59,075 nucleotides of DNA, taken from the NCBI GenBank assembly GCA_035491955.1, contig DATJJU010000012.1, positions 1 to 59,075 on the forward strand. The letters run 5' to 3'. The notes beneath the pieces are model-generated. The model made no database searches and was not told where the DNA came from. It saw only the letters and a program-made list of their open reading frames with translations. This DNA is from Minisyncoccota bacterium. Its GTDB lineage: Bacteria; Patescibacteriota; Minisyncoccia; Phycocordibacterales; UBA9973. This document shows, one piece after another, positions 4,842-55,432 of this stretch (positions are counted from its first letter, which is position 1; each line of letters starts with the position of its first letter). The position numbers and the translations under genes are program-made.

Positions 4842-4842
4842 A

Positions 4843-10526: not shown

Positions 10527-10529
10527 GTT

Positions 10530-24470: not shown

Positions 24471-24471
24471 C

Positions 24472-24501
24472 AAAAGGCCTTCCGCTTGCGGAAGGCCTTT
24501 T
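24472..24501. terminator. Bidirectional terminator
   Basis: AAAGGCCTTCCGC/GCGGAAGGCCTTT 13-bp stem (24473-24485/24488-24500). Confidence 0.7.
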
Positions 24502-24514
24502 GTACTGGAGTTCT

Positions 24515-38508: not shown

Positions 38509-38509
38509 T

Positions 38510-39019: not shown

Positions 39020-39023
39020 TACT

Positions 39024-41033
39024 ATGACCCCAAAAGAAGGAAAAGAGAGATTGGAAAAGCTGCAGCATCAGATCACTGATTTGCGTTTTCGCTATCACGT
39101 AGAAAATGACCCTACCGTCACTGACGATGTCTACGAATCATTGATACGCGAGGCCAAGGCTCTTGAAAAAGATTTCCCGCAGTATGCTATTTCACAAGAG
39201 TTTGATCGTGTAGCAGGAGCACCGCTCAGTGTTTTCACAAAGGTTACTCATGCATCACGCATGCTTTCACTCAATGATGTCTTTAGCGTCGACGAGCTCA
39301 AGGAATGGAGTGCCCGCATGGAGCGTCTTTTGAATAATGCACCGCACCACTATTTTGCAGAAGTGAAATTGGACGGCTTGGCTGTAACCTTGAAGTACGA
39401 GAATGGAAAACTTACGCAAGCTGCAACGCGAGGCGACGGCTTTGTAGGGGAGGATATTACGGAGAATGCGAAAATGGTGCGGACCATACCATTGCAGCTG
39501 ACCGCACCATTTCCTCCTTCTATCGAAGTGCGCGGTGAAATCATCATGCGCAAGTCAGTCTTGGCCAAGCTCAATGCTATACAACAAAAAGCTGGCAAGA
39601 CACTTTTTGCCAATACTCGCAATGCCGCAGCAGGATCTGTTCGCCAGCTTGATCCGCAATTGGTAAAAGATCGCCAGTTGGATTTTTTTGCATATGATTT
39701 ACTTGGCGACCTGGTCGCCAAGAGGCACTCTGAAAAGCATGCACTGTTAAGAAAACTTGGTTTGCCAGTAGTGGCTGACGAAAAAGAGGCAGGTACTGTT
39801 GAAGCACTACTTCCATTCATAGATAGTATTGCCAAGAAGCGCGATAGTTTGGGATTCAATATAGACGGCATTGTTATCAGTGTAGACGAAACCGCGCTGC
39901 AAGATACGCTCGGCATTGTCGGCAAAGCTCCACGATATATGACTGCTTTTAAATATCCGGCTGAACGTGTCACAACAGTAGTAAAAGATATTACAGTGAA
40001 TGTTGGTCGTACAGGAGTACTGACTCCGCTTGCTCATTTTGAACCAGTACTCGTAGCAGGTTCTACTGTTTCAAAATCTACGCTCCATAATATTGATCAA
40101 ATCAATCGTCTTGATATCCGCATTGGCGATACTGTTGTTATTCAAAAGGCAGGGGATGTGATACCAGAAGTGGTGCAGGTCTTGAAAGATTTGCGCACGG
40201 GCAAAGAAAAGAAATTTGTTATGCCGAAGAAATGTCCGGTCTGCGGCTTTCCTGTAGAGCAACGTGAAGCGCAAAGTAAAAAAGAAGAGACTGTCGCATT
40301 TTACTGTACGAACGATGACTGTCCGGCCAAGCATACACGTGGCATGATCCACTTCGTCCATATGATGGACATTTATGAAGTCGGTCCAAAAATTATTGAT
40401 CGCTTGCAGGAAGAAGGTTTGATCAATGATGCAGCAGATCTGTTTGCATTAACAGAAGCGGATCTGAGTGGCTTAGAGCGTTTCGGTGAAAAGAGTGCAC
40501 AGAATATTATTGCTGCTATCACTGATAAAAAACAGCCCCCACTTGATCGCTTTATTGCCTCACTCGGTATTAGTAATGTTGGTACGGAAACTGCGCGAGA
40601 TATTGCATTACACTTCGGCAGCTTTGAAAAATTCTGGGAAGCGAAAGGCGAAGAGTTTGATAGCATTCCTAATATCGGTCCTGCTGTCGTGGAAAGCATC
40701 ACTGAATACCGTAACCGAGAATCATCAAAAAATCTTATTAAAAAATTATTTGATAACGGCGTGAAGCCGAAGGCCCTGAGCATAGCGAAAGGGAAGGGAA
40801 TATTCTCCGGCATGACTGTCGTGCTCACCGGTACTCTGGCAACAATGAGCCGTGAAAAAGCCAAAGAAATTATCCAATCTCAAGGGGGTAAAGTGACTGG
40901 CAGCGTCTCAGCCTCTACTTCTCTTGTCGTCGCTGGCGAAAAACCTGGCAGCAAATATACCGATGCGCAAAAATTGGGTGTAAAAACTGTAGATGAAGAG
41001 GGATTTTTGAAGATGGTAAAAGGTCTGGTATAG
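39024..41033 (+). CDS. ligA: NAD-dependent DNA ligase LigA
   Basis: Adenylation motif KLDG, OB fold, Zn finger CPVCG...C.N..CPA, HhH repeats, C-terminal BRCT. Confidence 0.95.
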   Translation: MTPKEGKERLEKLQHQITDLRFRYHVENDPTVTDDVYESLIREAKALEKDFPQYAISQEFDRVAGAPLSVFTKVTHASRMLSLNDVFSVDELKEWSARMERLLNNAPHHYFAEVKLDGLAVTLKYENGKLTQAATRGDGFVGEDITENAKMVRTIPLQLTAPFPPSIEVRGEIIMRKSVLAKLNAIQQKAGKTLFANTRNAAAGSVRQLDPQLVKDRQLDFFAYDLLGDLVAKRHSEKHALLRKLGLPVVADEKEAGTVEALLPFIDSIAKKRDSLGFNIDGIVISVDETALQDTLGIVGKAPRYMTAFKYPAERVTTVVKDITVNVGRTGVLTPLAHFEPVLVAGSTVSKSTLHNIDQINRLDIRIGDTVVIQKAGDVIPEVVQVLKDLRTGKEKKFVMPKKCPVCGFPVEQREAQSKKEETVAFYCTNDDCPAKHTRGMIHFVHMMDIYEVGPKIIDRLQEEGLINDAADLFALTEADLSGLERFGEKSAQNIIAAITDKKQPPLDRFIASLGISNVGTETARDIALHFGSFEKFWEAKGEEFDSIPNIGPAVVESITEYRNRESSKNLIKKLFDNGVKPKALSIAKGKGIFSGMTVVLTGTLATMSREKAKEIIQSQGGKVTGSVSASTSLVVAGEKPGSKYTDAQKLGVKTVDEEGFLKMVKGLV

Positions 41034-41042
41034 TGAATAGAC

Positions 41043-41327
41043 ATGAGTAATCTCACTAAAGACGACATTAAAAGACTGGCGAATTTGGCACGTTTGAGTG
41101 TGCCGGAGGAGGAAATGGACAGTGTAGCCCAGGATATCGATACTATCCTTGGCTTTGTCGATACGATTCAATCAGTGCAGCTTGGCGACCAGGTCGCTGA
41201 TATTCAAGACGAAGTAAATGTTTTTCGAGAAGACACGGTCAATCCACTTACTCCTGAGTATGATCTTATAGAAGCAGCACCATTGCATCAGGATCATTTT
41301 GTAAAAGTGCCAAAGGTTATTGAATAG
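41043..41327 (+). CDS. gatC: Glu/Asp-tRNA amidotransferase subunit C
   Basis: 94 aa. I..LA.LARL.....E...........IL.FV..I pattern, directly upstream of gatA. Confidence 0.85.
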   Translation: MSNLTKDDIKRLANLARLSVPEEEMDSVAQDIDTILGFVDTIQSVQLGDQVADIQDEVNVFREDTVNPLTPEYDLIEAAPLHQDHFVKVPKVIE

Positions 41328-41330
41328 ACT

Positions 41331-42722
41331 ATGGAATATAAGGGAATGGAAGAATTGCATAAGAAAATTGTCTCAGGAGAAATTCTTGTTCGTGATGTTG
41401 TGAAAGAATATGTTGCTCGTGCAAAGGCCAGTGACTTGAATGCGTTTCGAGAAATTTTTTCTGATGAAGATATTGCAGCACAGGTGGCAGTAGCAGAAAA
41501 GATGTTTGCTGACGGCACTGCGACTATGCTCACTGGCATGCCGATTGCACTGAAAGACAATATTTTGTTTGCTGGGCATGTGGTGAGCAGTAGTTCAAAA
41601 ATGTTGGAGCACTATGTCGCTTCATATGATGCCACTGTTATCGAAAAAATTAAAAAAGTTGGTGGTGTGATTATCGGTCGAACAAATATGGATGAATTTG
41701 CCATGGGTTCTTCTACTGAGAACTCAGCATTTGGCGTGACAAAAAATCCTCACGATACGACCAAAGTACCAGGCGGTTCATCTGGCGGTTCTGCTGCAGC
41801 AGTAGCGGCTGATTTATGTGTTGTTGCATTTGGTTCTGATACTGGAGGATCTATCCGACAGCCTGCAGCGTTTTGCGGCATTGTCGGACTACTTCCTACA
41901 TACGGCAGCGTGTCCCGTCACGGTCTTTCGGCTATGGGCTCATCGCTCGATGTTATTGGTCCAATGGCGCACAGCGTAGCGGATGCAGAAATTTTTTATA
42001 ATACATTCAAGGGCCGTGATCAGTATGACAGTACTTCTCGAGAAGGGAATGGCAATAAGCCTTTGAAAAAGAAACTAGCTATGCCGAAATTTGATCGCAG
42101 CGGCGTTGATGTGGAATTGCTTAAAAATTTTGAAGCAATGATAGAGAAGTTAAAAAGTGAAGGATTTACTATTGATGAAGTTGACCTTCCGCACTTCGCT
42201 GACGCATTGGCTGTCTACTATATATTGATGCCAGCAGAAGTGTCTTCAAACTTGGCACGACTAGACGGTATTCGCTATGGCGATCGTGCAGAGAGCGCAT
42301 CAATTCATGATGTCTATGGCGATACGCGCGGAGCACTCTTCGGCAAAGAAACTCGTCGTCGTATTCTTCTTGGCACCTACGTGCTGTCTCACGGCTACTA
42401 CGATGCCTATTACAACAAAGCTGTAGCATTGCGTGGCATCATTCGCAAAGAGCTTGAAGAAGTACTGCAAAATTATGACGCTATCATTACTCCGACCACG
42501 CCGACACCAGCTTTTGGTATTGGAGAAAAAGTCGACGATCCGGTCAGTATGTATCTCTCTGATTTGTTTACAGTGCCGGCTAATATCGCACAACATCCAG
42601 CTCTGTCTATTCCTTCAGGGAAAAATAGTGCAGGCTTGCCGTTCGGTATTCAATTTATCGGTCCTCGTTTTGCGGAAGATACACTCTTTGCGCTTGGCAA
42701 GATCATAGAGAATATACGATAA
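41331..42722 (+). CDS. gatA: Glu/Asp-tRNA amidotransferase subunit A
   Basis: Amidase signature GGSSGGSAAAVAA and catalytic GSDTGGSIRQPA. Confidence 0.95.
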   Translation: MEYKGMEELHKKIVSGEILVRDVVKEYVARAKASDLNAFREIFSDEDIAAQVAVAEKMFADGTATMLTGMPIALKDNILFAGHVVSSSSKMLEHYVASYDATVIEKIKKVGGVIIGRTNMDEFAMGSSTENSAFGVTKNPHDTTKVPGGSSGGSAAAVAADLCVVAFGSDTGGSIRQPAAFCGIVGLLPTYGSVSRHGLSAMGSSLDVIGPMAHSVADAEIFYNTFKGRDQYDSTSREGNGNKPLKKKLAMPKFDRSGVDVELLKNFEAMIEKLKSEGFTIDEVDLPHFADALAVYYILMPAEVSSNLARLDGIRYGDRAESASIHDVYGDTRGALFGKETRRRILLGTYVLSHGYYDAYYNKAVALRGIIRKELEEVLQNYDAIITPTTPTPAFGIGEKVDDPVSMYLSDLFTVPANIAQHPALSIPSGKNSAGLPFGIQFIGPRFAEDTLFALGKIIENIR

Positions 42723-42729
42723 TACAGGG

Positions 42730-43308
42730 GTGCAACCAACCTTCTATCAAATACAGCCGAAGTGGATAAACCTCGATAGTTTTTTTGCGCTCATCGGCAA
42801 CATCATTAAGTGGATCTTGTCGATACATTTTTTTGCCTTCATGTATATTCTCACCACTCTCGTTATCATTGCGCTTATTACGCTGATACTGTTTATGCTC
42901 GTGCGTTTGAGTGAAATCAAAAAGGATAAAGAAAAGAAAAAGGCTATGGTGGCGGCTACCATACAACCTGTTGCTCAAGCGGGTGTTTCAACTGGTAATG
43001 ATACCTGGCACAGTATTCGTGAACGATTGCTCTCCAATAACGATAGTGACTGGAAGCTCGCCATTATCGAAGCCGACATCTATCTTGATAAAATTTTGGA
43101 TAACAAAGGCTTTCACGGCGATACAACCAGCGACAAATTGAAACAAATTACCCCGGCTATTTTGCCGTCTATTGTTATGGCATGGGAAGCCCATAAAGTT
43201 CGCAATCGCATTGCTCACCAAGGTTCATCATTTGTGCTGACAATGCCGGAAGCGCGCAAAGTCTTATCATATTTCGAAATGGTTTTTACTGATTTAGGAG
43301 TAATTTAA
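42730..43308 (+). CDS. Membrane-anchored protein with a HEPN-like C-terminal domain
   Basis: GTG start, two N-terminal TM helices, and a C-terminal helical domain with AHKVRNRIAHQG (R-N-x-x-x-H at 43201-43218). Confidence 0.45.
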   Translation: MQPTFYQIQPKWINLDSFFALIGNIIKWILSIHFFAFMYILTTLVIIALITLILFMLVRLSEIKKDKEKKKAMVAATIQPVAQAGVSTGNDTWHSIRERLLSNNDSDWKLAIIEADIYLDKILDNKGFHGDTTSDKLKQITPAILPSIVMAWEAHKVRNRIAHQGSSFVLTMPEARKVLSYFEMVFTDLGVI

Positions 43309-43363
43309 GAAATCCTTAACTTGCATTTATTTAAATGCAGTTGTACAATCCAAACCTACACAT

Positions 43364-43434
43364 CGCGGGGTGGAGAAGTGGCATCTCGTAAGGCTCATAA
43401 CCTTAAGGCCCAGGTTCGATTCCTGGCCCCGCAA
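43364..43434 (+). tRNA. Initiator tRNA-fMet (CAT)
   Basis: C1 x A72 mismatch (CGCGGGG / CCCCGCA), anticodon arm TAAGG-CTCATAA-CCTTA, T loop TTCGATT, discriminator A. Confidence 0.8.
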
Positions 43435-43522
43435 CAATAAAACCCCCCATAGGTCCGACCTGTGGGAGGACAAGTATCGTGACAATATTCCAATTTATGA
43501 TATATTCTTGAGGCTATCAGCA

Positions 43523-43549
43523 CTTGTCGGCGTAGCTGTCTTGGTTAGA
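43523..43549 (+). pseudogene. 5' fragment duplicate of the downstream tRNA-Met gene
   Basis: 43523-43537 is identical to 43596-43610 (cttgtcggcgtagct). The next 12 nt match 9/12 (D arm), after which similarity ends. Confidence 0.5.
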
Positions 43550-43598
43550 TTCCGCGAAGCCGAACATGTATAGTAAAGTAGGAGAAAGATATACTCTT

Positions 43599-43675
43599 GT
43601 CGGCGTAGCTCAGTTGGTTAGAGCGTAGCACTCATAAAGCTAAGGTCGGAGGATCGTTCCCTCCCGCCGACACCA
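43599..43675 (+). tRNA. tRNA with CAT anticodon (elongator Met, or Ile2 if lysidinylated), CCA encoded, atypical T loop
   Basis: Acceptor GTCGGCG/CGCCGAC, anticodon arm TAGCA-CTCATAA-AGCTA (31-39 A:A mismatch), T arm GGAGG-ATCGTTC-CCTCC (A54/T58 instead of T54/A58), ACCA end. Confidence 0.7.
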
Positions 43676-43717
43676 TATCAGCCCGGCTGATATAATAGAA
43701 TAATCGCAATTAATATT

Positions 43718-43791
43718 GCGGACGTAGCTCAACTGGTTAGAGCACCCGCCTGTCACGCGGGAGGTTACGGGTTCAAGTCCCGCCGTTCGCG
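43718..43791 (+). tRNA. tRNA-Asp (GTC)
   Basis: Acceptor GCGGACG/CGTTCGC, anticodon arm CCCGC-CTGTCAC-GCGGG, T loop TTCAAGT, discriminator G. Confidence 0.85.
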
Positions 43792-43875
43792 CAAAATTTT
43801 AAACCTTAGCCCCCACAGTGAGTAAAGATTTTATTGAGGCTTAACAAAATAAATGATTTATTGTATAAATGCGAT

Positions 43876-44322
43876 ATGAAAAATAAAACTTTCCCTATGC
43901 TTCTTATTCTTATAATTATTGCATTGGCTACCTATATTGTTGTTGGGCAAAAACATCTTTTTAATTTACTGCCGCAATCTTTCACTGTTAAATTAGGTGC
44001 TACAGATTCAAGTGCTTCTGGTTCTAGTAGTTACACCTGGGTACTGAGTTTCAACGGCAACACTTTAACAAATGCAGTCGAACACTACTCTGTTGGCAGA
44101 GTTGGTTTTACTGGTTCAGGAGATTGTAATTTTCAGAACGGAACTTGGGTAGAACAAGGAACAGAAGATGCCTGTAAAGATGACGGAACCTCTTTATTTG
44201 GTATTCCATTAAATCGCACTAATCTCGAACAGAAGATTAGGAATGGTGTATTTGTAAAAGGAAATCCTGACAATTGTGGAGCAGATGTTGCCGGGGCTTC
44301 TCCTTGCTATCAAATAAATTAA
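43876..44322 (+). CDS. Hypothetical secreted or membrane-anchored protein
   Basis: Signal/anchor MKNKTFPMLLILIIIALATYIVV with several Cys. The ORF opens at 43834. I prefer ATG 43876 (TATAAA 6 nt upstream). Confidence 0.45.
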   Translation: MKNKTFPMLLILIIIALATYIVVGQKHLFNLLPQSFTVKLGATDSSASGSSSYTWVLSFNGNTLTNAVEHYSVGRVGFTGSGDCNFQNGTWVEQGTEDACKDDGTSLFGIPLNRTNLEQKIRNGVFVKGNPDNCGADVAGASPCYQIN

Positions 44323-44409
44323 ATCGTGCTTATTTAGTTCTCATGCCATCTGCTGTGTCGCGCAGAAAGTGATATACTAGTATTGTTACCAGGTAACAAA
44401 TTTGATTTT

Positions 44410-44679
44410 ATGTATTATGGATTTTTTGACCCATTGAGTGTTGTATTTCACGTCATTGGATGGATTCTTATTGTTTGGTTGATCGTGTGGATCATTCGCG
44501 GTGCGCGGATGCGACGCTATCACTACATGCATGGCATGCACAGCATGTGGTGCGATGGTACCAATTGTAACCATCCTTCACATGGCAGTAATGCAATGAA
44601 TGTCCTTAAAGAGCGCTTTGCAAAAGGCGAAATCAGCAAGGAAGAGTACGAAGAGCGCAAAAAGACCCTTCAGGGGTAA
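44410..44679 (+). CDS. SHOCT-domain small membrane protein
   Basis: One TM helix, a His/Met-rich linker, and a C-terminal LKERFAKGEISKEEYEERKKTL (SHOCT). An alternative TTG start lies at 44383. Confidence 0.65.
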   Translation: MYYGFFDPLSVVFHVIGWILIVWLIVWIIRGARMRRYHYMHGMHSMWCDGTNCNHPSHGSNAMNVLKERFAKGEISKEEYEERKKTLQG

Positions 44680-44681
44680 GG

Positions 44682-44705
44682 AAAAGCCCCAGAAATGGGG
44701 CTTTT
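44682..44705 (+). terminator. Rho-independent terminator
   Basis: AAAAGCCCC/GGGGCTTTT stem (44682-44690/44697-44705). Confidence 0.65.
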
Positions 44706-44712
44706 CATATGT

Positions 44713-44741
44713 TTGACAAATAAAAGCAAAGGTGTTATCAT
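44713..44741 (+). promoter_or_regulatory. Sigma-70-like promoter of the DEAD-box helicase gene
   Basis: TTGACA (44713-44718), exactly 17-nt spacer, TATCAT (44736-44741). Predicts a ~70-nt leader. Confidence 0.6.
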
Positions 44742-44815
44742 GTCGGCATTACTATAAGTATTGTGTTATTGACTATTGAGTCGTTATGACACAGTAGTAG
44801 AAATAAATAACACAT

Positions 44816-46201
44816 ATGAATACCACTCAATCTCGAGGCCCACGTCCGGCTCGTTCTCGTCGTGACGCCTCACCATCATTATCACATTTTTCATTGCGCC
44901 CACCAGAGCGTAGCGGCTTCGGCGCACCATCTCGCTTTCGTTCTAACGAAGCAGGCGCGCCTCGTTCTCGTTCTGGTGAAGCACCAGCTTCACGTTCTCG
45001 CTTTGCTGGAGGTAGTAAGGGCGGCTTTAGTAGCAGCTCTCGCTCTCGTTTCGGTGAAGGGAACCGCGGCCGTTTTTCTGGCAAGAAGAATAATCGCAAA
45101 TCAGACTATATTGATGAATCAAAGTTCATCAATCGCGCTGTAGAAGTAGAAGAAGTACAGCATGTTGCGAAGCATACATTTGCTGACTTCAATGTTCATC
45201 CTCAGCTTGCAACCAATTTGGAACGCAAAGGCTTCGTTCAGCCGTCTCCTATTCAAGACCAATCTATTCCTGTCGCACTTGAAGGCAAAGATGTTATTGG
45301 TATTGCCAATACTGGTACAGGCAAGACAGCAGCCTTTCTTATTCCTATCATCAATAAGCTTGTCAGTGATCCTGATCACAAAGCTATGGTCCTTACTCCT
45401 ACTCGTGAATTGGCGCAGCAAATCGAACAAGAGTTTCGCGCTATGACATTCGGTATGCGCATGTGGAGCGTTGCTGCTGTTGGTGGTCTGCCAATCATGC
45501 GACAAATTCGCCAGCTTGAGCTCGGTGTACATATTGTCATCGGTACTCCTGGTCGCGTAAAAGATTTGATCGCGCGCGGAAAAATTAATTTGAATAACTA
45601 TAGAACGATCGTGCTTGATGAAGCAGACCGCATGTTGGACATGGGCTTTATCGATGATATGCGTGAAATTCTTGGCGGCATGCCAAAAGATCGACAAGGT
45701 CTTTTCTTCTCTGCGACATTTTCTTCTGAAATCAAAGCATTGTGCAGCGACTTCTTGAAAGATCCTGTAACAGTTGCTATCAAGACTCGCGATACTGCAG
45801 CCAGTGTGGATCAGGATATCGTGCGTGCACATCCTTCAGAAAAGTTGGACAAGCTTCATGATTTGCTTAACAAGCCTGAATTCAAAAAAGTCTTGATCTT
45901 CCGAGAAACAAAGCATCATACTGATGAGCTTGCTCGTGAATTGAAGCATCGTGGTTTCTCAGTATCAGCGCTTCATGGAGACATGCGCAGCCGTGAGCGT
46001 TCACGCGCCGTGGATGCATTGACCAAGGGCCAGATCCAAGCAGTGATCGCCACTGATGTTGCAGCTCGCGGTATCGATATTCCTGATATTACTCATGTTA
46101 TCAACTACGATGTGCCATCAACCTACGACACGTACGTTCACCGTATCGGCCGTACTGGTCGCGGCAACAAGAAAGGCACGGCCCTGACTTTCGTCCGATA
46201 A
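44816..46201 (+). CDS. DEAD-box ATP-dependent RNA helicase with an Arg/Ser/Gly-rich N-terminal extension
   Basis: Q motif, Walker A ANTGTGKT, DEAD (VLDEADRM), SAT, HRIGRTGR. The first ~95 aa are low-complexity RS/RG repeats. Confidence 0.9.
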   Translation: MNTTQSRGPRPARSRRDASPSLSHFSLRPPERSGFGAPSRFRSNEAGAPRSRSGEAPASRSRFAGGSKGGFSSSSRSRFGEGNRGRFSGKKNNRKSDYIDESKFINRAVEVEEVQHVAKHTFADFNVHPQLATNLERKGFVQPSPIQDQSIPVALEGKDVIGIANTGTGKTAAFLIPIINKLVSDPDHKAMVLTPTRELAQQIEQEFRAMTFGMRMWSVAAVGGLPIMRQIRQLELGVHIVIGTPGRVKDLIARGKINLNNYRTIVLDEADRMLDMGFIDDMREILGGMPKDRQGLFFSATFSSEIKALCSDFLKDPVTVAIKTRDTAASVDQDIVRAHPSEKLDKLHDLLNKPEFKKVLIFRETKHHTDELARELKHRGFSVSALHGDMRSRERSRAVDALTKGQIQAVIATDVAARGIDIPDITHVINYDVPSTYDTYVHRIGRTGRGNKKGTALTFVR

Positions 46202-46209
46202 TTAAAAAA

Positions 46210-46254
46210 CAAAGGTCCAACCTATGTGAATACATAGGTTGGACCTTTGTTTTT
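46210..46254 (+). terminator. Rho-independent terminator
   Basis: 18-bp perfect stem 46210-46227/46232-46249, GAAT loop, T5. Confidence 0.8.
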
Positions 46255-46420
46255 GTTGAAATAATCTATCTTTATGCTATCTTTTAAGTACTTTCCAGAG
46301 AAAACAAGGGTGTTGGCTTGGAAGCAGCCATTCGCTTAAAGAGTGCGTAACTGTTCACTTGTCGAGGGAAGTACCGATATTTGCTACCGTGTCTATCACG
46401 AACGAATATCGGTTATTTGT

Positions 46421-46496
46421 GCCAATGTAGCTCAGTTGGTAGAGCACTCCCATGGTAAGGGAGAGGTCATCGGTTCAATCCCGATCATTGGCTCCA
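46421..46496 (+). tRNA. tRNA-Thr (GGT), CCA encoded
   Basis: Acceptor GCCAATG/CATTGGC, anticodon arm CTCCC-ATGGTAA-GGGAG, T loop TTCAATC, TCCA end. Confidence 0.85.
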
Positions 46497-46551
46497 GATA
46501 GAGGATCAAGGACTTTATTTTTTTGAAAATTCATGTATAATCAGTGCTCTT

Positions 46552-48354
46552 ATGGAAATTCGTAACATCGCTATCATCGCACACGTGGACCACGGCAAGA
46601 CAACATTAACAGACAAAATGTTGGCTTTTTGCGGTGAAATGCAGGAAGGAGCATCAATGGACTCAAACCAGCTTGAACGCGAGCGCGGTATTACTATCTA
46701 TGCCAAGAACACAGCAGTTACGTATAAAGGTACAAAAATCAATATTGTTGATACCCCAGGTCACGCCGACTTCGGTTCAGAGGTAGAGCGCGTGCTCCGC
46801 AGTATCGACTCGGTGCTTTTGATCGTTGATGCACAAGAAGGCCCAATGCCTCAGACTCGCTTTGTATTGAAGAAATCTTTGGAGCTTGGTCTCAAGCCTA
46901 TTGTTGTGATTAACAAGATCGATAAGCCAGGTGCAAATATTGCCCACACTCACGATGCTGTATTTGAACTCTTCTTGGAGCTTGGTGCAACTGATGAACA
47001 GCTCGACTTCACTACTGTCTACGCAATCGGTCGCGATGGTGTAGCAATGCGCGAACCAAATGATGAAAAGAAAGACCTTGCTCCACTTTTTGAAACTATT
47101 TTGGAAAAAGTACCAGTAGCTGCCAACGATACATCAAAGCCGTTCCGTATGCAGGCATTTAACCTTGCTTACGATAACTTCCTCGGACGTCTGGCTGTTG
47201 GCCGTGTCTATGAAGGTATTGCGAAAATGGGCGACACTGTATTCATTAAGACTGAAAATGGTGCAAAGCGCCAAGCTAAGATCACAAAACTTTTCAGTTT
47301 CCACGGCTTCACTCGTGAAGAAGTACAGGATGCACAAGCAGGGGACATTGTCATGCTTGCTGGTATTCCTGACATCTTCATTGGCGAAACTATCACTGCC
47401 AATGCTGATGCAGAACTTCTACCAGCTATTCGTATCGACGAACCAACTATTGTTTTGGACTTCTTGGTTAATAACTCTCCATTTGCTGGTAAGGAAGGAA
47501 AGTTTGTGACCTCTCGCCAGATCCGCGAGCGTCTTGAGCGTGAATTGGAAATCAACGTTGGCTTGAAGGTAGACTTCAGTCCTGATCCTAATCGTATTGC
47601 CGAAGGCTTCAAAGTATTCGGTCGCGGCGAAATGCACATTGCTGTGTTGCTTGAAACAATGCGACGTGAAGGATATGAAATGCAGGTTTCTCAGCCACAG
47701 GTAATCATCAAAGAAATTGATGGCGTGAAGAGCGAGCCGTTTGAAGAGGTGACAATTGATATTCCTTCAGAATTTCAGGGTGCTGTTATTGAGAAGCTCG
47801 GCATGCGCGGCTTCATCATGAAAGATATGAAAATGCATAGTGCAAGTACTCGCATGATCTTCGAAGGCCCAACTCGCGGACTCTTTGGCTATCGCGGGCA
47901 ATTCCTTGTTGATACAAAAGGCGAGGGCATTATGGCTTCTCAAGTGCTAGGCTTCCGTCCATATGCTGGTGAAATCACTCGTCGTCATGTTGGCTCTATG
48001 ATCTCAATGGAAACAGGCAAGGCATTGGGCTATTCTCTCTGGGGCTTGCAGGAGCGCGGCGTGCTCTATATTAGTCCTGCTACAGAAGTTTACGAAGGCA
48101 TGATCATTGGTAATACTTCAAAAGGTGAAGAAATGACAGTGAACCCAACCAAGAACAAGCAGCTGACAAATGTTCGCGCATCAGGAACTGACGAAGCGAT
48201 CAATCTCGTACCACCATGGACACTGACTATCGAACGCGGTTTGGAAATTATCCAAGATGATGAATTTCTAGAAGTGACCCCTCTCTCTGTTCGTTTGCGC
48301 AAGCAATACCTCAGTGATACCGATCGCTCAAAAGCTCGAAGAAAGGTACAATAA
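46552..48354 (+). CDS. typA: Translational GTPase TypA/BipA
   Basis: G1 AHVDHGKTT, G3 DTPGHADF, G4 NKID. The 600-aa length and C-terminal domain match BipA. Confidence 0.95.
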   Translation: MEIRNIAIIAHVDHGKTTLTDKMLAFCGEMQEGASMDSNQLERERGITIYAKNTAVTYKGTKINIVDTPGHADFGSEVERVLRSIDSVLLIVDAQEGPMPQTRFVLKKSLELGLKPIVVINKIDKPGANIAHTHDAVFELFLELGATDEQLDFTTVYAIGRDGVAMREPNDEKKDLAPLFETILEKVPVAANDTSKPFRMQAFNLAYDNFLGRLAVGRVYEGIAKMGDTVFIKTENGAKRQAKITKLFSFHGFTREEVQDAQAGDIVMLAGIPDIFIGETITANADAELLPAIRIDEPTIVLDFLVNNSPFAGKEGKFVTSRQIRERLERELEINVGLKVDFSPDPNRIAEGFKVFGRGEMHIAVLLETMRREGYEMQVSQPQVIIKEIDGVKSEPFEEVTIDIPSEFQGAVIEKLGMRGFIMKDMKMHSASTRMIFEGPTRGLFGYRGQFLVDTKGEGIMASQVLGFRPYAGEITRRHVGSMISMETGKALGYSLWGLQERGVLYISPATEVYEGMIIGNTSKGEEMTVNPTKNKQLTNVRASGTDEAINLVPPWTLTIERGLEIIQDDEFLEVTPLSVRLRKQYLSDTDRSKARRKVQ

Positions 48355-48358
48355 TACT

Positions 48359-49066
48359 ATGAACGAGAAGCGTTTAAAGGAATTCTGGAATAAGGAGTAT
48401 AAGGATCCGGAATTTTTTTCATTGTCGGATGAGGCAAGCGGAGACTTACAAAAATTCACGCGCTGGCTGCAAAAAGAATATGGCAAGGATGTATTACGGT
48501 CTGATATTACCGTGCTTGATGCTGGGTGCGGTAATGGCCGTAACTTACTCTGGTTGAATGATCAGTTTCGCGTGCGAGGCTTCGGCTATGATATTTCTGA
48601 AGTAGCAATTAGACAGGCAACGGAAAATGCTGCATTGCAAAAATGGGGAAATAAACTAACGTTCGCAGTACATTCTATCGGCCAAGATATCCCATTGCCT
48701 GATGAAAGCGTGGATATTGTTCTCGACATGATGGCAAGTCACTTTCTGAAAGAAAAAGAACGCGCACAATTTATCAAAGAAGTGGCGCGCGTTCTGAAGC
48801 CGCAAGGAGTACTTTTCTTTAAGTCCTTCTATATGGAAGGCGATCAGCATGCGAAAGATTTAGTGAAGAATGAAAGTGCCGGCGAAGAGAATGCGTATAT
48901 CCATCCGCGATTGAAAGTGTATGAATACGTTTGGACCGACCAAGCTATAGAAAAAAGCTTTGGTGCAAATTTCACGCTGCAGCACAAAGAAGCATCGCAT
49001 AAACACAACATTCGCGGCAAGCCGAACAAGCGTCGCAGTGTTGTATGTTATTTTGAGAAGAAGTAG
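48359..49066 (+). CDS. Class I SAM-dependent methyltransferase
   Basis: Motif I VLDAGCGNGRN and motif II-like VDIVLD. ATG 48359 lies 4 nt after the typA stop (ORF opens at 48314). Confidence 0.8.
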   Translation: MNEKRLKEFWNKEYKDPEFFSLSDEASGDLQKFTRWLQKEYGKDVLRSDITVLDAGCGNGRNLLWLNDQFRVRGFGYDISEVAIRQATENAALQKWGNKLTFAVHSIGQDIPLPDESVDIVLDMMASHFLKEKERAQFIKEVARVLKPQGVLFFKSFYMEGDQHAKDLVKNESAGEENAYIHPRLKVYEYVWTDQAIEKSFGANFTLQHKEASHKHNIRGKPNKRRSVVCYFEKK

Positions 49067-49100
49067 AGTACAGCACAAAGGGCCATATATACCACAGGCA

Positions 49101-49343
49101 CCCATGCTGCGTGTATGTTTCCAAAAGTCCTTGGTAAACCGCGGATTTTGAAAACATACAGCTCCGCCCAGCTTTGAGTGGTAATGTAAACCTTTTGTGG
49201 TATTGGGGTTGGACGTTTCTTTCGCACAGAACACACAACCCCAATACCACCCACAGATACGCTTCCACCTATAGCTGGGCGGAACCAAACAAAATAAAAT
49301 CAGAGGTTCACCGATGACTTTTATTTTGTTTGTGGAGCATGGG
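49101..49343 (+). ncRNA. Unassigned, highly structured RNA-like element (strand provisional)
   Basis: Closing helix 49101-49108/49336-49343. Hairpin 49113-49126/49146-49159 (13 of 14 bp). Long-range helix 49164-49173/49273-49282 enclosing a perfect 15-bp hairpin 49197-49211/49236-49250. A/U-rich 14-bp hairpin 49286-49299/49319-49332. No plausible CDS. Confidence 0.5.
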
Positions 49344-49380
49344 GGCTATAGGTACAATAAGTGTTCTAATGAGACTCTTC

Positions 49381-49456
49381 GCCAGTGTAGCTTAGCAGGT
49401 AGAGCAATGGTATCGTAAACCATAGGTCGCCGGTTCGATTCCGGCCACTGGCTCCA
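49381..49456 (+). tRNA. tRNA-Thr (CGT), CCA encoded
   Basis: Acceptor GCCAGTG/CACTGGC, anticodon arm ATGGT-ATCGTAA-ACCAT, T loop TTCGATT, TCCA end at 49453-49456. Confidence 0.85.
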
Positions 49457-49457
49457 T

Positions 49458-50339
49458 ATGAATAAAGAAACAATGCAACACCGCATCACGGAAATTGAAG
49501 CTGCTATGAATAGCGGGGATTTTTGGAATGACAAAAACAAAGCACAGGCCATGATCAAAGAATTGCAGGAATTGAAAGATGCCGTTCAAGGATTGGGGAA
49601 ATACGACAAAGGCAATGCAATCATTACCATATTTGCTGGGGCTGGCGGAGATGATGCAGAAGATTTTGTCGGTATGATTTTAAATATGTATATGCGCTAT
49701 GCAGAAAAGCGTGGCTGGCTGATTGGGTTTTTGGAGCAGCATGCCAACGATCACGGAGGATATAGAAATGTAGCATTCAGTGTCGAAGGCAAGGGTGCGT
49801 ATGCGACTTTGAAAAATGAATCAGGTGTTCATCGTCTGGTGCGCATCTCTCCGTTTAATGCTAATGGCAAGCGCCAGACCTCTTTTGTCATGGTAGAAGT
49901 CATACCGGAATTTTCAAAAGGCGATAGTGATATTGTCATACCGGAAAGTGATATTGATATTTCATTTGCCAAAGCCGGCGGTCCAGGCGGGCAGAATGTG
50001 AATAAGAGAGAGACTGCTGTGCGTATTGTGCATAAGCCAACCGGCATGAGCGTGCATGTCGCAAGTGAGCGCAGTCAGGAACAGAATCGCGAAAAGGCAC
50101 TTGATCTATTAAAAGGAAAATTGTTCAAGCGCCAGGAAGAAGAACGCAAAGCACTGGAGAGTGGTGTGCAAATCTCGAAGACCACAGAGAACGAATGGGG
50201 TAGTCAGATCAGATCGTATGTCTTGCATCCGTATAAGCAAGTGAAGGATCATCGCACAGGAGTAGAGGTAAGTAATGCTGCAGGAGTGCTTGAAGCCGGG
50301 AATATTGAAGATTTTCTCGAAGCTGAAAAAACCTTATAA
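49458..50339 (+). CDS. prfB: Peptide chain release factor 2, short form (reduced domain 1, no programmed frameshift)
   Basis: SPF tripeptide (49848-49856), GGQ (49986-49994), RF2-like DFWND..KAQ. Only 293 aa. A single uninterrupted ORF starts 1 nt after the tRNA CCA. Confidence 0.85.
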
Positions 50340-50375
50340 CGAAAGGTAAAGCTGAATATGCTATACTAAAAACTC

Positions 50376-51056
50376 ATGATAAAGTTTGTAAATGTATCAA
50401 AAGTATATCCAAACGGTGCAGTTGCGTTGGAAAACGTAAATCTCGATATTGAAAAAGGAGAATTTGTGACGATCGTCGGCCCATCAGGCGCAGGCAAGAC
50501 CACTCTTAATAAGCTGATATTGGCTGAAGAAGAACCAACAGAGGGAACAGTTCTTTTTGAGAATGAAGATATAGACGCTTTTAATAATGCAGAGACTACT
50601 CGCTTGCGCCGACGTATTGGTACGATCTTCCAAGAGTTCCGTCTTTTACCAAATAAGACTGCCTATGAAAATATTGCATTTGCTATGGAAGCAGCAGGCA
50701 AGAGCGATGAGGAAATAGTATCTGATGTGCCGCATGTTCTTCAGCTCGTAGATTTGCAAGATCGCATGTTCCACTTCCCAGGACAGCTGTCTGGCGGAGA
50801 AAAGCAGCGCTTGGCTATTGCTCGCGCCATTATCAATCAGCCGGAGGTGTTGTTGGCCGATGAGCCAACGGGCAACCTTGACTCTCGCAACACTGATGAG
50901 GTGATAGAAATTTTAAAAAAGATCAATGATCTCGGTACTACAGTCGTACTGACTACGCATGACCCTCAACTGATCAAAGCAGTAGGGCAGCGCATTATCA
51001 GCATGGAGCGCGGACGCATTGTCGGTGATGAAGAGAAGGCGCGTACCAGAATTTAA
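50376..51056 (+). CDS. ftsE: Cell-division ABC ATPase FtsE
   Basis: Walker A GPSGAGKTT, signature LSGGEKQR, Walker B LLADEPTGNLD. Directly upstream of ftsX. Confidence 0.9.
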   Translation: MIKFVNVSKVYPNGAVALENVNLDIEKGEFVTIVGPSGAGKTTLNKLILAEEEPTEGTVLFENEDIDAFNNAETTRLRRRIGTIFQEFRLLPNKTAYENIAFAMEAAGKSDEEIVSDVPHVLQLVDLQDRMFHFPGQLSGGEKQRLAIARAIINQPEVLLADEPTGNLDSRNTDEVIEILKKINDLGTTVVLTTHDPQLIKAVGQRIISMERGRIVGDEEKARTRI

Positions 51057-51073
51057 TACTGTATACTAATCAT

Positions 51074-51997
51074 ATGTTTTGGATCAGACTAAAAAGAGTA
51101 ATCAAATCAGGCTGGATAAACTTCCGCAGAAATAGTGTTGTATCATACGCGGCTATTTTAGTAACCACTATTACGCTCACTGTTGTGACAGGTATCTTCC
51201 TTTTCCAGGCTATCTTAAATGCCACTATTGCTAATGTGCAGAGCAAGGTGGATATTGCAGTCTACTTCACCGCTGATGCTCCGGAGGATCAAATCCTCAG
51301 TCTTTCTTCCGATCTAGAAAAACTACCGGAAGTGGCAAATGTGCAGTACATTTCTGCTGATCAGCAGGTATTGGCATTCCGCGATCGCCACTCAAATGAC
51401 TATCTGACGCTGCAAGCGCTTGATGAATTGGGTGACAATCCATTCGGGGGTCTTTTGCAGGTTACCGCAAAGGATTCAAGTCAGTATGATGCTATTGCTC
51501 AGGTCTTGCAGGGCGATACCGATATTGCTCGTTCCAATTCTCAAATCATTGAGCGTATCAACTACTCTCAAAACAAAACTATCATCGACAAACTCAATAG
51601 CCTCATCTTCAGTGCTCGTCGCGTAGGATTGATCTCAACACTTATCCTGGCAATTGTTTCTATTATCATTATGCACACCACTATTCGTTTGAGCATTTAT
51701 ATGGCTCGTGAAGAAATTGGCATTATGCGCTTGGTTGGTGCGAGTGGTTCATATGTTCGTGCGCCATTCCTCGTGCAAGGCATGCTCTACGGTGCCTTTG
51801 CCTGGCTCTTAACGAATCTCTTATTCTTCCCGCTGACATACTTTGCCGGACAAAGGCTGACTGATCTTCTTGGTATTAATCTGTACTCTTACTACATCAG
51901 TCATCTTTTCTCAGTTTCTGGTCTAGTCCTTATCATTGGCCTCTTGCTCGGCATGATCTCAAGCCTTCTCGCTGTTCGACGATATCTGAATGTGTAG
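51074..51997 (+). CDS. ftsX: Cell-division permease-like protein FtsX
   Basis: N-terminal TM helix, periplasmic domain, and three C-terminal TM helices with the MRLVGAS motif. Confidence 0.85.
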   Translation: MFWIRLKRVIKSGWINFRRNSVVSYAAILVTTITLTVVTGIFLFQAILNATIANVQSKVDIAVYFTADAPEDQILSLSSDLEKLPEVANVQYISADQQVLAFRDRHSNDYLTLQALDELGDNPFGGLLQVTAKDSSQYDAIAQVLQGDTDIARSNSQIIERINYSQNKTIIDKLNSLIFSARRVGLISTLILAIVSIIIMHTTIRLSIYMAREEIGIMRLVGASGSYVRAPFLVQGMLYGAFAWLLTNLLFFPLTYFAGQRLTDLLGINLYSYYISHLFSVSGLVLIIGLLLGMISSLLAVRRYLNV

Positions 51998-52030
51998 CAT
52001 AATTCCAGAGGTCCAGCCTCGGGGAACAGA

Positions 52031-52080
52031 GGCATAACAAAAAGCGCGAACCGTTTACGGTTCGCGCTTTTTGTTATGCC
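52031..52080. terminator. Long bidirectional terminator
   Basis: 23-bp stem 52031-52053/52058-52080, TTTA loop. The 3' arm overlaps the stop of the convergent DUF2795 gene. Confidence 0.75.
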
Positions 52081-52286
52081 TCACTCTCATTTCCTTCTTC
52101 GCTGCTGCCTGATAGAGCACTCTGTACTTCTGCTGGAGTGGTATAGGTATTGTCCGGCAAACCATCTAGCGCATCGGTCACATCACTTGGTGCACTATTT
52201 TCATTTGCCTTACTAATCAGGTCTTGCTTGGTTGCGGGATAACTCATTCCGCTTAAATATGCTTGAACATCAATTGGGTTTGCCAT
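52074..52286 (-). CDS. DUF2795-family small protein
   Basis: NPIDVQAYLSGMSYPATKQDLI..A..N.AP..V...L..LPD..Y..PAEV is the DUF2795 pattern. Confidence 0.75.
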   Translation of the reverse strand: MANPIDVQAYLSGMSYPATKQDLISKANENSAPSDVTDALDGLPDNTYTTPAEVQSALSGSSEEGNESEA

Positions 52287-52416
52287 ATTTTTTCTATCTC
52301 ATTAATTACTAAAAACTCGACCCATATATTTAATAACGCTGGCGGCACCACTTTTATTTCATGTTGATTTTTTGACGAAAAAACGCTATTCTACATCGGC
52401 GTATTACTACGCTTTT

Positions 52417-52487
52417 TGCGGAATCGTCTAATGGTAGGACAACGGTTTCTGGTACCGTTTATCTTGGTTCGAGTCCAGGTTCCGCAG
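52417..52487 (+). tRNA. tRNA-Gln (CTG)
   Basis: U1-A72 acceptor TGCGGAA/TTCCGCA, anticodon arm ACGGT-TTCTGGT-ACCGT, T arm CTTGG-TTCGAGT-CCAGG, discriminator G. Confidence 0.8.
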
Positions 52488-52551
52488 CAACTAGTTTTCT
52501 CTATAAAAACTCATCGTATCGATAGAGTCATTTCGTGTTAAAGTTAAAACA

Positions 52552-52986
52552 ATGAAAATAATCAAACAGGAGCAATCGCAAGAACAGTTAGCAGAATGGG
52601 TAGATATATTTTTACGTGGAGAGGGTAAAAATATTCGGTTGGCGGATAGTCTCAAGGAACAAAAGCGTTGGTGGGCTCGAGTAGCTAATTTCCCAATAAA
52701 TAAGCTTGTTAGATGCTGTGGTCCTGAAGATGGGATGGAATATAAGGAGCCTCTAGAGAGATGGAATGCAAGAGTAGATTCTTTAATGGAGCATATAAGG
52801 TCTGAGGGATACATTGCTCCTTTGATTGCATATTATGGGGCGCATTACGGAAATGAAATGTTTTCAGTAAGAGATGGCAATCATCGCCTGGCTGCATGTG
52901 AAAAACTTGGTAACAAAACCCTGGATACTTTGATATGGTGCGACTCGGAAGAGGATTTTGAAAAAGTTAAGGGATTAATTTCTTAG
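52552..52986 (+). CDS. ParB/sulfiredoxin-like nuclease-domain protein
   Basis: 144 aa with the VRDGNHRLAA motif (ParB N-terminal domain DGxHR). Lies in an AT-rich stretch 3' of tRNA-Gln. Confidence 0.55.
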   Translation: MKIIKQEQSQEQLAEWVDIFLRGEGKNIRLADSLKEQKRWWARVANFPINKLVRCCGPEDGMEYKEPLERWNARVDSLMEHIRSEGYIAPLIAYYGAHYGNEMFSVRDGNHRLAACEKLGNKTLDTLIWCDSEEDFEKVKGLIS

Positions 52987-53140
52987 TAAATAAGGTTCCA
53001 ACTTCGTCCCATGCGGTCAGCCCTTCGTCGTACCTCCTCAGGGTCTGCGATCTCCCTTAAACTGTAGAACAATAAAGAGAAATTGTGGAATTAAAAAATC
53101 CCTGTAAATGTAATATTGTCACATCTGCAGGGACCACGCT

Positions 53141-53440
53141 TCATTTTTGAGGTAATAAGCGTTCTAAGATTTTTTTACCGTCTTCTGAAGAGGCTATCTC
53201 ATTTTGTTTAACAAAAACAGGGAAGGAGTTGGGCCAACGACCCCCAAGAGCGACCCCATGAATATCATAGGCGATAACTCCTTTTCGTTTTGTGTTCCAA
53301 CCTATAGCGTCATAACCCGATCGGCCTGTTTCGCTAAAAATGTAATCTACTTCATCACTTGTATTTGTTATAAATACTTCATCGTCCTCTCTCTCAGGAT
53401 GATTGTCTCTATTAAAATCAAGTTTTTTCATGTTAAGCAA
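53141..53440 (-). CDS. Hypothetical protein
   Basis: 99-aa ORF followed on its strand by a hairpin plus T-run (~53096-53135). One of only two CDS here ending in TGA. Confidence 0.4.
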   Translation of the reverse strand: MLNMKKLDFNRDNHPEREDDEVFITNTSDEVDYIFSETGRSGYDAIGWNTKRKGVIAYDIHGVALGGRWPNSFPVFVKQNEIASSEDGKKILERLLPQK

Positions 53441-53531
53441 TTTTATTTATAATAACATATAACAATATTTTGTCAATTATTTATTTTTCAATATAAAAGA
53501 CCTCTGCAAGAGAGGCCTTTTATATGAGTTT

Positions 53532-54365
53532 TTATCCGAGCTTTTTGTTTAGCCATTCAATGCCGCGTTCTGCGATGTGTCCGAGCATATCGAAGAAACT
53601 GTGAGCGATAGGCACGTGGTTGTAACCATACCAGGAGATAGCAACGAATAGTACGAACCAAACTAAACCGAGAAGGCTATATAAAAACTCCATGAAGCCA
53701 GAGCGGCCATAGCCGTTATAGTGGTGGCGATATTGCTGGCGCTGCCACCGCTTCTGTTCTTTCTTCGCGTATCTCTTCTGCCATTTATCCCAGCCTTCAT
53801 ATCCTGAGCGAGTTTTGTCGATAATAGTCTGAGCGGTCATGCGCATAGTGTTCCACGCTTCTGCTTTTTCTTCTGGTGTATTGGCTTTAGGAATAACCCA
53901 ATACATGACAAAGTATACGAATATCCACGCGCCTCGTGTCAGCACTGCTAGTACTACGAAGGCAATGCGAACCAATGTCACATCAATATCAAAGTACACT
54001 GCGATGGCATTACAGACACCAAGAATATACGCATTGTCAGGAAGAATATAAATCTTCTTTTGATTGCCATGTTCGCCATCTTTCTTTTCAGTTTTTTCTC
54101 CTTCTGATTCAGAACTTTCTACTGGACCCATTTCCGCAATAATTTTTTCTACTTCGCTGGCAGTAATGACATCCTTTGATGCGCTAAGATATGTCTCGCA
54201 CTTTTCAGCAATAGCTAGATTGAAGTCTTTCAAGATTTCTTCCTTATCAGGGTTGTTGGCAAGATTGTTCTCGGCTTTTTCAAGATAAGCTTTTAAGATG
54301 TTGTAGCCTGGCTCCTCGATTTTGTATGAGCGTCCGGCTAGATTGATTGTAATTACTTTGTTCAT
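53532..54365 (-). CDS. PspC-domain membrane protein
   Basis: LGVCNAIAVYFDIDVTLVRIAFVVLAVLT (PspC domain) plus additional TM helices. Its ATG overlaps the padR TGA (ATGA). Confidence 0.8.
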   Translation of the reverse strand: MNKVITINLAGRSYKIEEPGYNILKAYLEKAENNLANNPDKEEILKDFNLAIAEKCETYLSASKDVITASEVEKIIAEMGPVESSESEGEKTEKKDGEHGNQKKIYILPDNAYILGVCNAIAVYFDIDVTLVRIAFVVLAVLTRGAWIFVYFVMYWVIPKANTPEEKAEAWNTMRMTAQTIIDKTRSGYEGWDKWQKRYAKKEQKRWQRQQYRHHYNGYGRSGFMEFLYSLLGLVWFVLFVAISWYGYNHVPIAHSFFDMLGHIAERGIEWLNKKLG

Positions 54366-54682
54366 ATATTTTTTATTAGGGTGTTAATTTTTTTCCAATA
54401 TTCTTCTATTTCCTTTAATTGTTCGCGACCTTTTTTGGTAAGACTGTAATATTTTCGTGGCGGTCCGGAGTCTGACTCTTGCCATTCATAGTCTAGGTAG
54501 CCATCGCGGCGCATCCTGCTCAGCAGGGGATAGAGCGTGCCTTCCTGCGTAGCAAACTCGGTTTGGTTAAGCTCTTGCAGCATATCGGCGACATACATCT
54601 GCTTGGCATTAATCATCTTCAGCAAGACAAACTCCAAGAGCCCTTTGCGAATCGAACTAAATTTTTCATTAATGGTGTCCAT
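54362..54682 (-). CDS. PadR-family transcriptional regulator
   Basis: Winged-helix pattern YV.DM...L.......EGTLYPLLSRM..DGYL......ES..GPPRKYYSLT..G. Confidence 0.9.
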   Translation of the reverse strand: MDTINEKFSSIRKGLLEFVLLKMINAKQMYVADMLQELNQTEFATQEGTLYPLLSRMRRDGYLDYEWQESDSGPPRKYYSLTKKGREQLKEIEEYWKKINTLIKNI

Positions 54683-55400: not shown

Positions 55401-55405
55401 ATAAG

Positions 55406-55432
55406 AAAGCCGCCCGGTACGGGCGGCTTTTT
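55406..55432. terminator. Bidirectional terminator
   Basis: AAAGCCGCCC/GGGCGGCTTT stem (55406-55415/55421-55430). Confidence 0.7.

Follow-up and report, generated by a model that had tools for sequence, protein, structure and literature searches.

A probable MITE-like palindromic repeat of compound architecture at gene boundaries of a soil Candidatus Paceibacterota bacterium

A structured spacer between a methyltransferase gene and tRNA-Thr(CGU)

The stretch of DNA analysed here (the window; 59,075 nt) carries, around the locus of interest, a series of housekeeping genes: LigA, GatCA, a DEAD-box helicase, BipA, a methyltransferase, RF2, and FtsEX. The gene for the class I SAM-dependent methyltransferase (48314-49066, + strand; Pfam Methyltransf_25/11/31) ends with its stop codon at 49064-49066, which is the same point of a conserved C-terminus (CYFEKK, then stop) as in two relatives, L081 and L084. 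It is followed, after a gap of 314 nt, by tRNA-Thr(CGU) (49381-49456, + strand; ARAGORN; Rfam tRNA, 69.4 bits), and prfB (49458-50339, + strand; Pfam PCRF/RF-1) starts 2 nt past the tRNA. These three genes flank the element described below and lie outside it. In GTDB, the relatives of this prfB come from Candidatus Paceibacterota/Nomurabacteria MAGs and reach no more than 79% identity. A tRNA-Thr(CGU) upstream of prfB is widespread among GTDB relatives, where it often closes a Met-Met-Asp-Thr-Thr tRNA cluster.

Several features of the neighbourhood are recorded in their own right. The tRNA cluster, Met-Met-Asp-Thr(GGU)-Thr(CGU), is contiguous in many relatives and is split in the window (43364-49456) by two blocks, one (43834-46201) with an unknown ORF, a SHOCT-domain ORF, and the DEAD-box helicase, the other (46552-49066) with BipA and the methyltransferase. 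At two further loci (L039, 1864-2040; L035, 1988-2160), tRNA-Thr(GGU) is followed by a conserved insert (~130 nt) that has no Rfam family match. Two copies of the tRNA 3' end, first an inverted and then a direct one, flank this insert, which may be a scar of integration or a small RNA linked to the tRNA. The window RF2 (49458-50339) is only 293 aa long, its PCRF domain match starts at profile position 95, and its gene lacks the programmed frameshift site; the same short form is found in all close relatives. Two tRNAs of the window have anticodons that are unusual for bacteria, namely a tRNA-Ser with anticodon ACT (13973-14060, - strand; ARAGORN), present alongside a normal tRNA-Ser(GCT) at 19227, and a tRNA-Ile with anticodon TAT (5387-5461, + strand; ARAGORN). 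A replication origin or terminus near 49 kb was rejected, as GC skew shows no switch there.

Within the gap, we delimited a repeat of ~296 nt at 49072-49367 (+ strand), the only segment common to three other copies (L116, L141, and L151; see below). Its ends are uncertain by ~10 nt, with possible limits at 49067 on the left and ~49376 on the right, and nhmmer with the family profile spans 49066-49369 in the window. Across copies the element is non-coding and ~296-304 nt in size, with indels of 10-50 nt that fall in the central loop. It is bounded by a left terminal inverted repeat (AGCACAAAGGGCCATATATACC..CACCCATGCT; 49072-49108, + strand) and a right one (AGCATGGGGGCT..GGTACAATAAGTGTTCT; 49336-49367, + strand). 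The former is conserved in the window, L151, L108, L116, L141, and L089 (alignment A1), the latter in the window, L151, L116, L141, and L097. The left repeat pairs with 49336-49367, and the inner 8-11 bp of this pairing are invariant; its inner part forms the closing helix (49101-49108/49336-49343). Every copy carries CACCCATGCT / AGCATGGGKG and GGTAYAWT-type outer parts.

Three further units lie between the terminal repeats. Hairpin module A (49112-49160, + strand; arms 49112-49126/49146-49160, 93% paired) has a copy-specific outer stem of 10-11 bp around an AAAA/TTTT inner stem and a conserved 19-nt apical part. A long-range junction helix then pairs TCCGCCCAGCT (49163-49173, + strand), which is almost invariant in all copies, with AGCTGGGCGGA (49273-49283, + strand) and encloses a central rod (49174-49272, + strand). 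The rod includes a perfect 15-bp hairpin (49197-49211/49236-49250, 15 of 15 pairs), and the apical loop between its arms measures 24 nt in the window, 22 nt in L141, 34 nt in L116, and 65 nt in L151. Finally, hairpin module C (49286-49332, + strand; arms 49286-49299/49319-49332, 14 of 14 pairs) is the inverted homologue of module A. A preliminary description of this DNA had listed five nested helices, and all five were recomputed at the positions it gave. Absent from that description were the inverted homology of A and C and the outward extension of the element to about 49072-49367. The apical loops of the two hairpins are 81% complementary over 27 nt, with unrelated outer stems; the whole region is therefore a large imperfect palindrome with its own hairpin on each arm.

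The 314-nt gap folds at -125.2 kcal/mol as + strand RNA (z -8.3), at -133.4 kcal/mol as - strand RNA (z -10.2), and at -66.2 kcal/mol as single-stranded DNA (z -9.3), and in each case no shuffle was as stable. In a sliding scan of the whole 59-kb window, the element is the top GC-corrected folding outlier (-6 SD); the remaining outliers are simple perfect hairpins of 20-25 bp with A and T runs, plus the tmRNA. As a separate observation, perfect hairpins of 15-25 bp with an A run and a T run sit at gene ends throughout the window (10488-10535, 17816-17863, 24470-24503, 46204-46254, 52029-52082, and 55405-55432), and these long hairpins look like bidirectional intrinsic terminators and are the source of the window's other folding outliers. 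A consensus scan for promoters and terminators over 48900-49500 found none, and the same interval holds no intrinsic terminator of the type G+C-rich stem plus T run.

The element matches no known RNA family; the preliminary description had found no match to RNase P, SRP, 6S, a T-box, or tmRNA. Neither the window copy nor five other copies matched Rfam 15 at gathering thresholds, and at E ≤ 10 the window copy returned nothing besides tRNA, tmRNA, and chance miRNA-like matches. The gap likewise holds no credible coding sequence, in agreement with the preliminary description: the reverse-strand ORFs that cross the element gave 0 matches to Pfam. The openness of all reverse frames had also been taken as a sign of sequence constraint. 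The stretch itself is real, with the + strand free of TTA, CTA, and TCA over 222 nt (49049-49270), the second longest such stretch in the window, and one of at least 208 nt arises in 2% of shuffles; but it is not kept in other copies, L151 having both TCA and CTA. The longest stretch of this kind in the window (3033-3291, 259 nt) lies within a 634-aa ORF (2485-4389), and there, too, all reverse frames are open.

Dispersed copies and empty sites

We scanned metagenome contigs with a degenerate pattern, AGCTGGGCGGA N10-18 AAAATCNNNGGYT, built from the parts common to both arms. Most of the 86 matches were unrelated human-gut coding sequence, and ten other groups of matches were chance matches within genes. 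True homologues were found at six loci: L151 (both arms), L141, L116, L089, L097, and L108. L089 has an intact left half and a substituted right half, whereas L097 and L108 are contigs that begin or end within the element. Only one run (X1) contains a near-identical window element, and a second contig of this run carries a variant with the same loop and a different stem. Identity to the window copy is 84% for L116, 78% for L141, and 69% for L151. By BLAST, the element alone is common to these contigs and the window, or among the contigs, and similarity to the window stops at 49077-49087 on the left and at 49361-49367 on the right.

The copies have different neighbours. L151 lies between ribonucleotide reductase and Fmt and L108 beside HisRS-Def, the site of both being the def-fmt spacer. 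L141 lies between SecF and LemA-HtpX, L116 in a YraN / tRNA / CCA-adding enzyme setting, L097 upstream of SecA, and L089 between an RNase T-like exonuclease and MnmA. Four of the six copies lie 13 to ~400 nt ahead of a housekeeping gene and point the same way as it does, with no orientation bias overall; the L141 and L116 copies are antisense to both of their neighbours. These two antisense copies and the variable distance to the next gene contradict a role as a general 5' leader. The known copies amount to 5-6 loci, far fewer than in classic REP or MITE families.

No second copy was found within the 59-kb window, and a profile search of the window and 176 loci gave no copy beyond those described. 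A solitary hairpin module was absent from the ~1.3 Mb of sequence searched; viral contigs (searched with the pattern) and phages and plasmids (searched by blastn) gave 0 matches, and neither blastn nor nhmmer found the element at 80 prfB loci of GTDB Paceibacteria. Copy number, which the preliminary description had singled out for checking, is therefore one within the window, but homologues are dispersed over metagenome contigs, with at least four in one MAG.

Three oddities of these contigs are noted in passing. At L089 (560-690), another perfect 16-bp palindrome (CAAGACAGCCATAATG...CATTATGGCTGTCTTG) stands in place of the right half, perhaps through nested insertion or recombination. L151 carries a 16S rRNA gene of 1804 nt (4540-6343), against a 1533-nt model, with ~270 nt of insertions; such 16S rRNA insertions are often reported for CPR bacteria. 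The same contig holds, in the 440-nt spacer after the ribonucleotide reductase gene, a 38-nt piece (10496-10533) whose flanks differ in three rhizosphere runs and which may be another short repeat.

Several of these copies share a genome. An exact look-up of the flanking proteins returned HTH93148 (Def), HTH93180 (YraN), HTH93200/93201 (LemA, HtpX), HTH93334 (SecA), and HTH93375 (Fmt), all named 'MAG TPA: Candidatus Paceibacterota bacterium'. These accessions are neighbouring, which places at least four copies in one genome bin. The window is probably a fifth locus of the same bin. Its own proteins show the same pattern of sources (NCBI plus JGI). JGI sample 3300045391 contains a contig with the window's exact RF2 and another that reads HisRS-Def, 366 nt, Fmt; in run X1, the window copy and an L151-like copy both have a depth of 3.2-3.9 and a piece of the L116 flank a depth of 4.5; and the tetranucleotide profiles of the window and the other loci are compatible.

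Relatives provide the corresponding sites without the element. The closest of those found via a protein database (L081-L085; prfB 81-86% identical) read methyltransferase, 21-23 nt, tRNA-Thr, then a minus-strand ORF of ~190-200 aa, then prfB. Given this short spacer, the ~300 nt at the same place in the window are an insertion in the window's lineage. A relative in SRR32489446 is devoid of the element at both comparable loci, the methyltransferase-tRNA site (L081) and the def-fmt spacer, there 73 nt long (L173). A third empty site lies between SecF and LemA: L177 can be aligned to both flanks of the L141 copy, with ~304 nt missing precisely where the element lies, and the LemA of L177 falls in the same 90% identity cluster as that of L141. 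Relatives thus have empty sites at three loci (methyltransferase-tRNA, def-fmt, and SecF-LemA). A freshwater relative in run X2, whose flanks are ~80% identical in nucleotides, carries 298 non-alignable nt at the methyltransferase-tRNA site. Regarding the minus-strand ORFs between tRNA-Thr(CGU) and prfB (L081, 1837-2412; L084, 1805-2413; L085, 27-608), we note that they encode 191-202 aa, have no Pfam match, and look unrelated in DNA between L081 and L084; the slot just 3' of tRNA-Thr(CGU) is variable in relatives and empty in the window.

In L141, the last two codons and the stop of SecF (AAC AAG TAA) come from the element end. The L141/L177 junctions are compatible with a 3-4 bp GAAA duplication, a weak indication from one pair in an A-rich context, and no consistent target-site duplication was clear at the other junctions. 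A comparison of L141 (6455-6464) with L177 (200-226) also brought out an AAGTAAG / AAGTAG-like motif that is gene-proximal in the def and methyltransferase copies as well; it could be a gene-end target preference or part of the terminal repeat.

Copying appears to be recent. The left halves of L108 and L151 are 100% identical over 110 nt in spite of different left flanks, and the right halves of L097 and L151 are 94% identical with a different right flank. In several runs, unitigs lie wholly inside the element and contigs break inside it; assemblers break this way at recently copied repeats, and the presence of the repeat accounts for the breaks at these gene boundaries. A local by-product with no family behind it, whether a decayed terminator stack, an inverted duplication, or an assembly artefact, is scarcely credible. 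It is true that this genome uses long A-tract/stem/T-tract terminators and that modules A and C share their layout, but the terminator scan was negative, the composite architecture turns up again in assemblies and samples that are independent of each other, and homologous copies already contradict any reading without a family.

Compensatory changes in the hairpin modules

Alignment A1 comprises seven sequences. When the window fold is laid over it, 89% of cells are paired, compared with 33-46% for slid controls, and 17 pairs are changed on both sides, a number reached in 0 of 500 shuffles. RNAalifold, applied to the four full copies independently of the window fold, gave the same architecture, with 89 pairs, 14 of them compensatory. 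Nearly all two-sided changes are in the side hairpins: module A has them at 6 of its 22 pairs, and module C, in which 100% of cells are paired, at 9 of 20. The closing helix, the TCCGCCCAGCT/AGCTGGGCGGA junction helix, and the central 15-bp stem are near-invariant or show G-U changes only, variation in the stems of the central rod being confined to one-sided changes of this type; since these three helices barely vary, they are uninformative for or against pairing. The segments proposed for a loop-loop interaction also hardly vary among the copies of A1 and so offer no compensatory changes with which to test it. The preliminary description had called for covariation as support for a structured element. 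Such support exists for the two side hairpins, but the rest is too invariant, and an RNA gene is not thereby shown.

How the modules vary is instructive. Among eight distinct modules set in a common orientation, the outer 5' arms are 38% identical, and yet each module pairs at 9.9 of 11 positions with its own partner arm vs 4.9 with the arm of another module. The apical 27-28 nt are conserved and come in two types, TCC/GGA and TCA/TGA, which are linked by compensatory change, and a given stem or loop type may occupy position A in one copy and position C in another. The compensatory changes show that the shape of the two hairpin modules matters; they do not by themselves name the beneficiary, and the perfect compensation in the two hairpins could equally reflect host selection on an RNA.

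A host-functional multicopy RNA, that is, a small RNA or a cis-acting leader or 3' UTR module for genes of translation and secretion (tRNA-prfB, fmt, secA, and mnmA), would fit the strong fold and the compensatory changes in two hairpins, as well as the four of six copies that are upstream of, and co-directional with, a housekeeping gene. It would also fit an excess of G-U over A-C (10 vs 2) in the central rod of the non-window copies read in + orientation, but this count is biased by the structure having been taken from the + strand, and its events are not independent; wobble in the side modules favours the AAAATC orientation, which is present on both strands of each element. Four observations on the copies themselves run against such an RNA: the copies at L141 and L116 run antisense to the genes on either side, the element is missing from the same loci in close relatives, the spacing to the next gene varies from 13 to ~400 nt, and neither an Rfam family match nor a promoter- or terminator-like site is present. 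Moreover, two RNA runs match mainly the tRNA, with no contig on the element, and the other matching runs are DNA metagenomes. We consider a host-functional RNA quite improbable.

A mobile repeat and its relation to known systems

We put at about three in four the probability that the element is one member of a MITE-like family of palindromic repeats, small, non-coding, and non-autonomous, which has dispersed among the intergenic spacers of a soil Candidatus Paceibacterota bacterium. The case for a mobile element rests on dispersed copies in unrelated flanks, insertion polymorphism, terminal repeats, the lack of coding capacity, and the assembly breaks; the element shares with MITEs a length below ~500 bp without coding capacity, conserved terminal repeats, dispersed copies, and filled and empty sites. 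The family, which belongs to a CPR bacterium, is previously undescribed, and its compound architecture is unusual. A palindromic mobile element was the last alternative listed in the preliminary description and is the one that the dispersed copies (at least four in one MAG) and the empty sites bear out. Its other proposals fared differently. A new structured ncRNA was to be given up if many dispersed copies (a MITE) turned up, and copies were found at 5-6 loci. A cis-regulator of the tRNA-prfB-ftsEX transcript is at odds with closest relatives that lack the element, with copies at unrelated genes, and with two copies that are antisense, and a ribozyme found no backing in any Rfam family match.

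In the window's lineage, the element went in between the methyltransferase stop and tRNA-Thr(CGU). A putative transposase supplied in trans would recognise the conserved termini and the hairpin modules; no transposase was found among 19 predicted proteins of the window (38450-54682) or among ten flanking proteins at other loci, ~100 kb of the genome being covered in all. The modules may be read as folded single-stranded DNA, a possibility raised by the conservation of module shape and loops while the outer stems drift with compensation. Only copies that retain what the transposition machinery needs would leave descendants.

At the window locus, the insertion may have had consequences for transcription. 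In L084, the tRNA is preceded by TTGAGA, 17 nt, and TATCAT, the first being a -35-like hexamer. The insertion would have moved the methyltransferase 3' end, including this hexamer, ~300 nt away from the tRNA, and tRNA-prfB-ftsEX may now be transcribed by read-through across the element. Alternatively, a weak fortuitous promoter could lie at the right end of the element (TTGTGG, 17 nt, TACAAT; 49330-49358), below the threshold of our scan. Read-through from neighbouring genes would produce a multi-hairpin RNA of very high stability that could, as a side effect, block 3' exonucleases or transcription. Once RNase P had cut at the 5' end of the tRNA, the methyltransferase mRNA would carry the folded element close to its 3' end. 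Such transcript and promoter effects would be by-products and not the reason for the existence of the sequence.

A bolder reading treats the element as a mobile structured module whose hairpins act as folded nucleic acid, either as a new ssDNA-mobilised class in CPR bacteria or as a domesticated multicopy RNA, and gives the drifting outer stems a role of their own; this role would be, for example, to prevent recombination between copies or to set specificity. We regard it as speculative and rather improbable.

For the MITE-like repeat that we favour, the wider interest is threefold. The small, streamlined genomes of CPR/Patescibacteria are usually said to contain little mobile DNA, and a full-text literature search returned no paper with a title or abstract on interspersed repeats or MITEs in this group. 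A structured repeat at gene boundaries (tRNA-prfB, def-fmt, secF, and secA) points to ongoing small-scale genome turnover in a CPR bacterium. It also calls for caution in ncRNA screens, where strong folding scores and even compensatory changes can stem from a mobile palindromic repeat. And if a mobilising enzyme were found, the two-hairpin architecture could reveal how it recognises its substrate.

REP units are 20-40 nt long, have a conserved 5' GTAG, occur in tens to hundreds of copies, and are often single; REP/BIME and REPIN doublets are mobilised by RAYT (Y1 HUH) transposases. Our element resembles them in its inverted hairpin pairs, conserved hairpin shape, extragenic location, and lack of an obvious target duplication, and differs from them in that its modules measure ~49 nt, lack GTAG, are contained in a 300-nt unit with outer inverted repeats, and were not seen alone. 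These comparisons bear on the route of mobilisation. Movement as single-stranded DNA by an HUH/Y1 transposase (RAYT or IS200-like), for which the two inverted modules would be the active parts, bound in folded form, and without target-site duplication, is the main mechanistic rival to the classical MITE route, which we hold to be the most likely. It would suit two modules inverted as in REP doublets, stems that covary around conserved loops, as expected from shape recognition, the absence of a clear duplication at most junctions, and the very stable ssDNA fold (z -9.3). However, no conserved GTAG-like tetranucleotide is present at the feet of the modules (GCG-TGTA, CCA-TAGA, CCG-TACA, and TCG-TGAA), modules never occurred alone in the ~1.3 Mb searched, the element is ~10 times as long as a REP, DDE-type elements typically have conserved outer terminal inverted repeats such as those found here, and a Y1 transposase was not among the proteins scanned in ~100 kb of the genome. 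On balance, a REPIN-like element is unlikely.

The Rickettsia palindromic elements (RPE) are typically found in frame inside coding sequences. Like them, our element is a palindromic repeat of a reduced genome that lies at or inside gene ends (the SecF stop in L141), but it is longer, and all of its copies are intergenic or at the last codon.

The closest parallels are bacterial MITEs with a long-hairpin fold that are transcribed together with neighbouring genes, such as the Correia elements of Neisseria, RUP and BOX of Streptococcus pneumoniae, and ERIC of enterobacteria. Small and non-coding like these, the element described here has terminal inverted repeats, an intergenic position near gene ends, several copies per genome, and insertion polymorphism among relatives, and its strong RNA structure follows from the palindromic layout. 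Unlike them, it belongs to a CPR host, has no established TA or other duplication and no known parent IS, and is ~300 nt in length vs their 100-160 nt, with few copies known. Its build also differs: where those elements form a single long hairpin, this one consists of two inverted modules and a central rod, closed by the terminal repeats.
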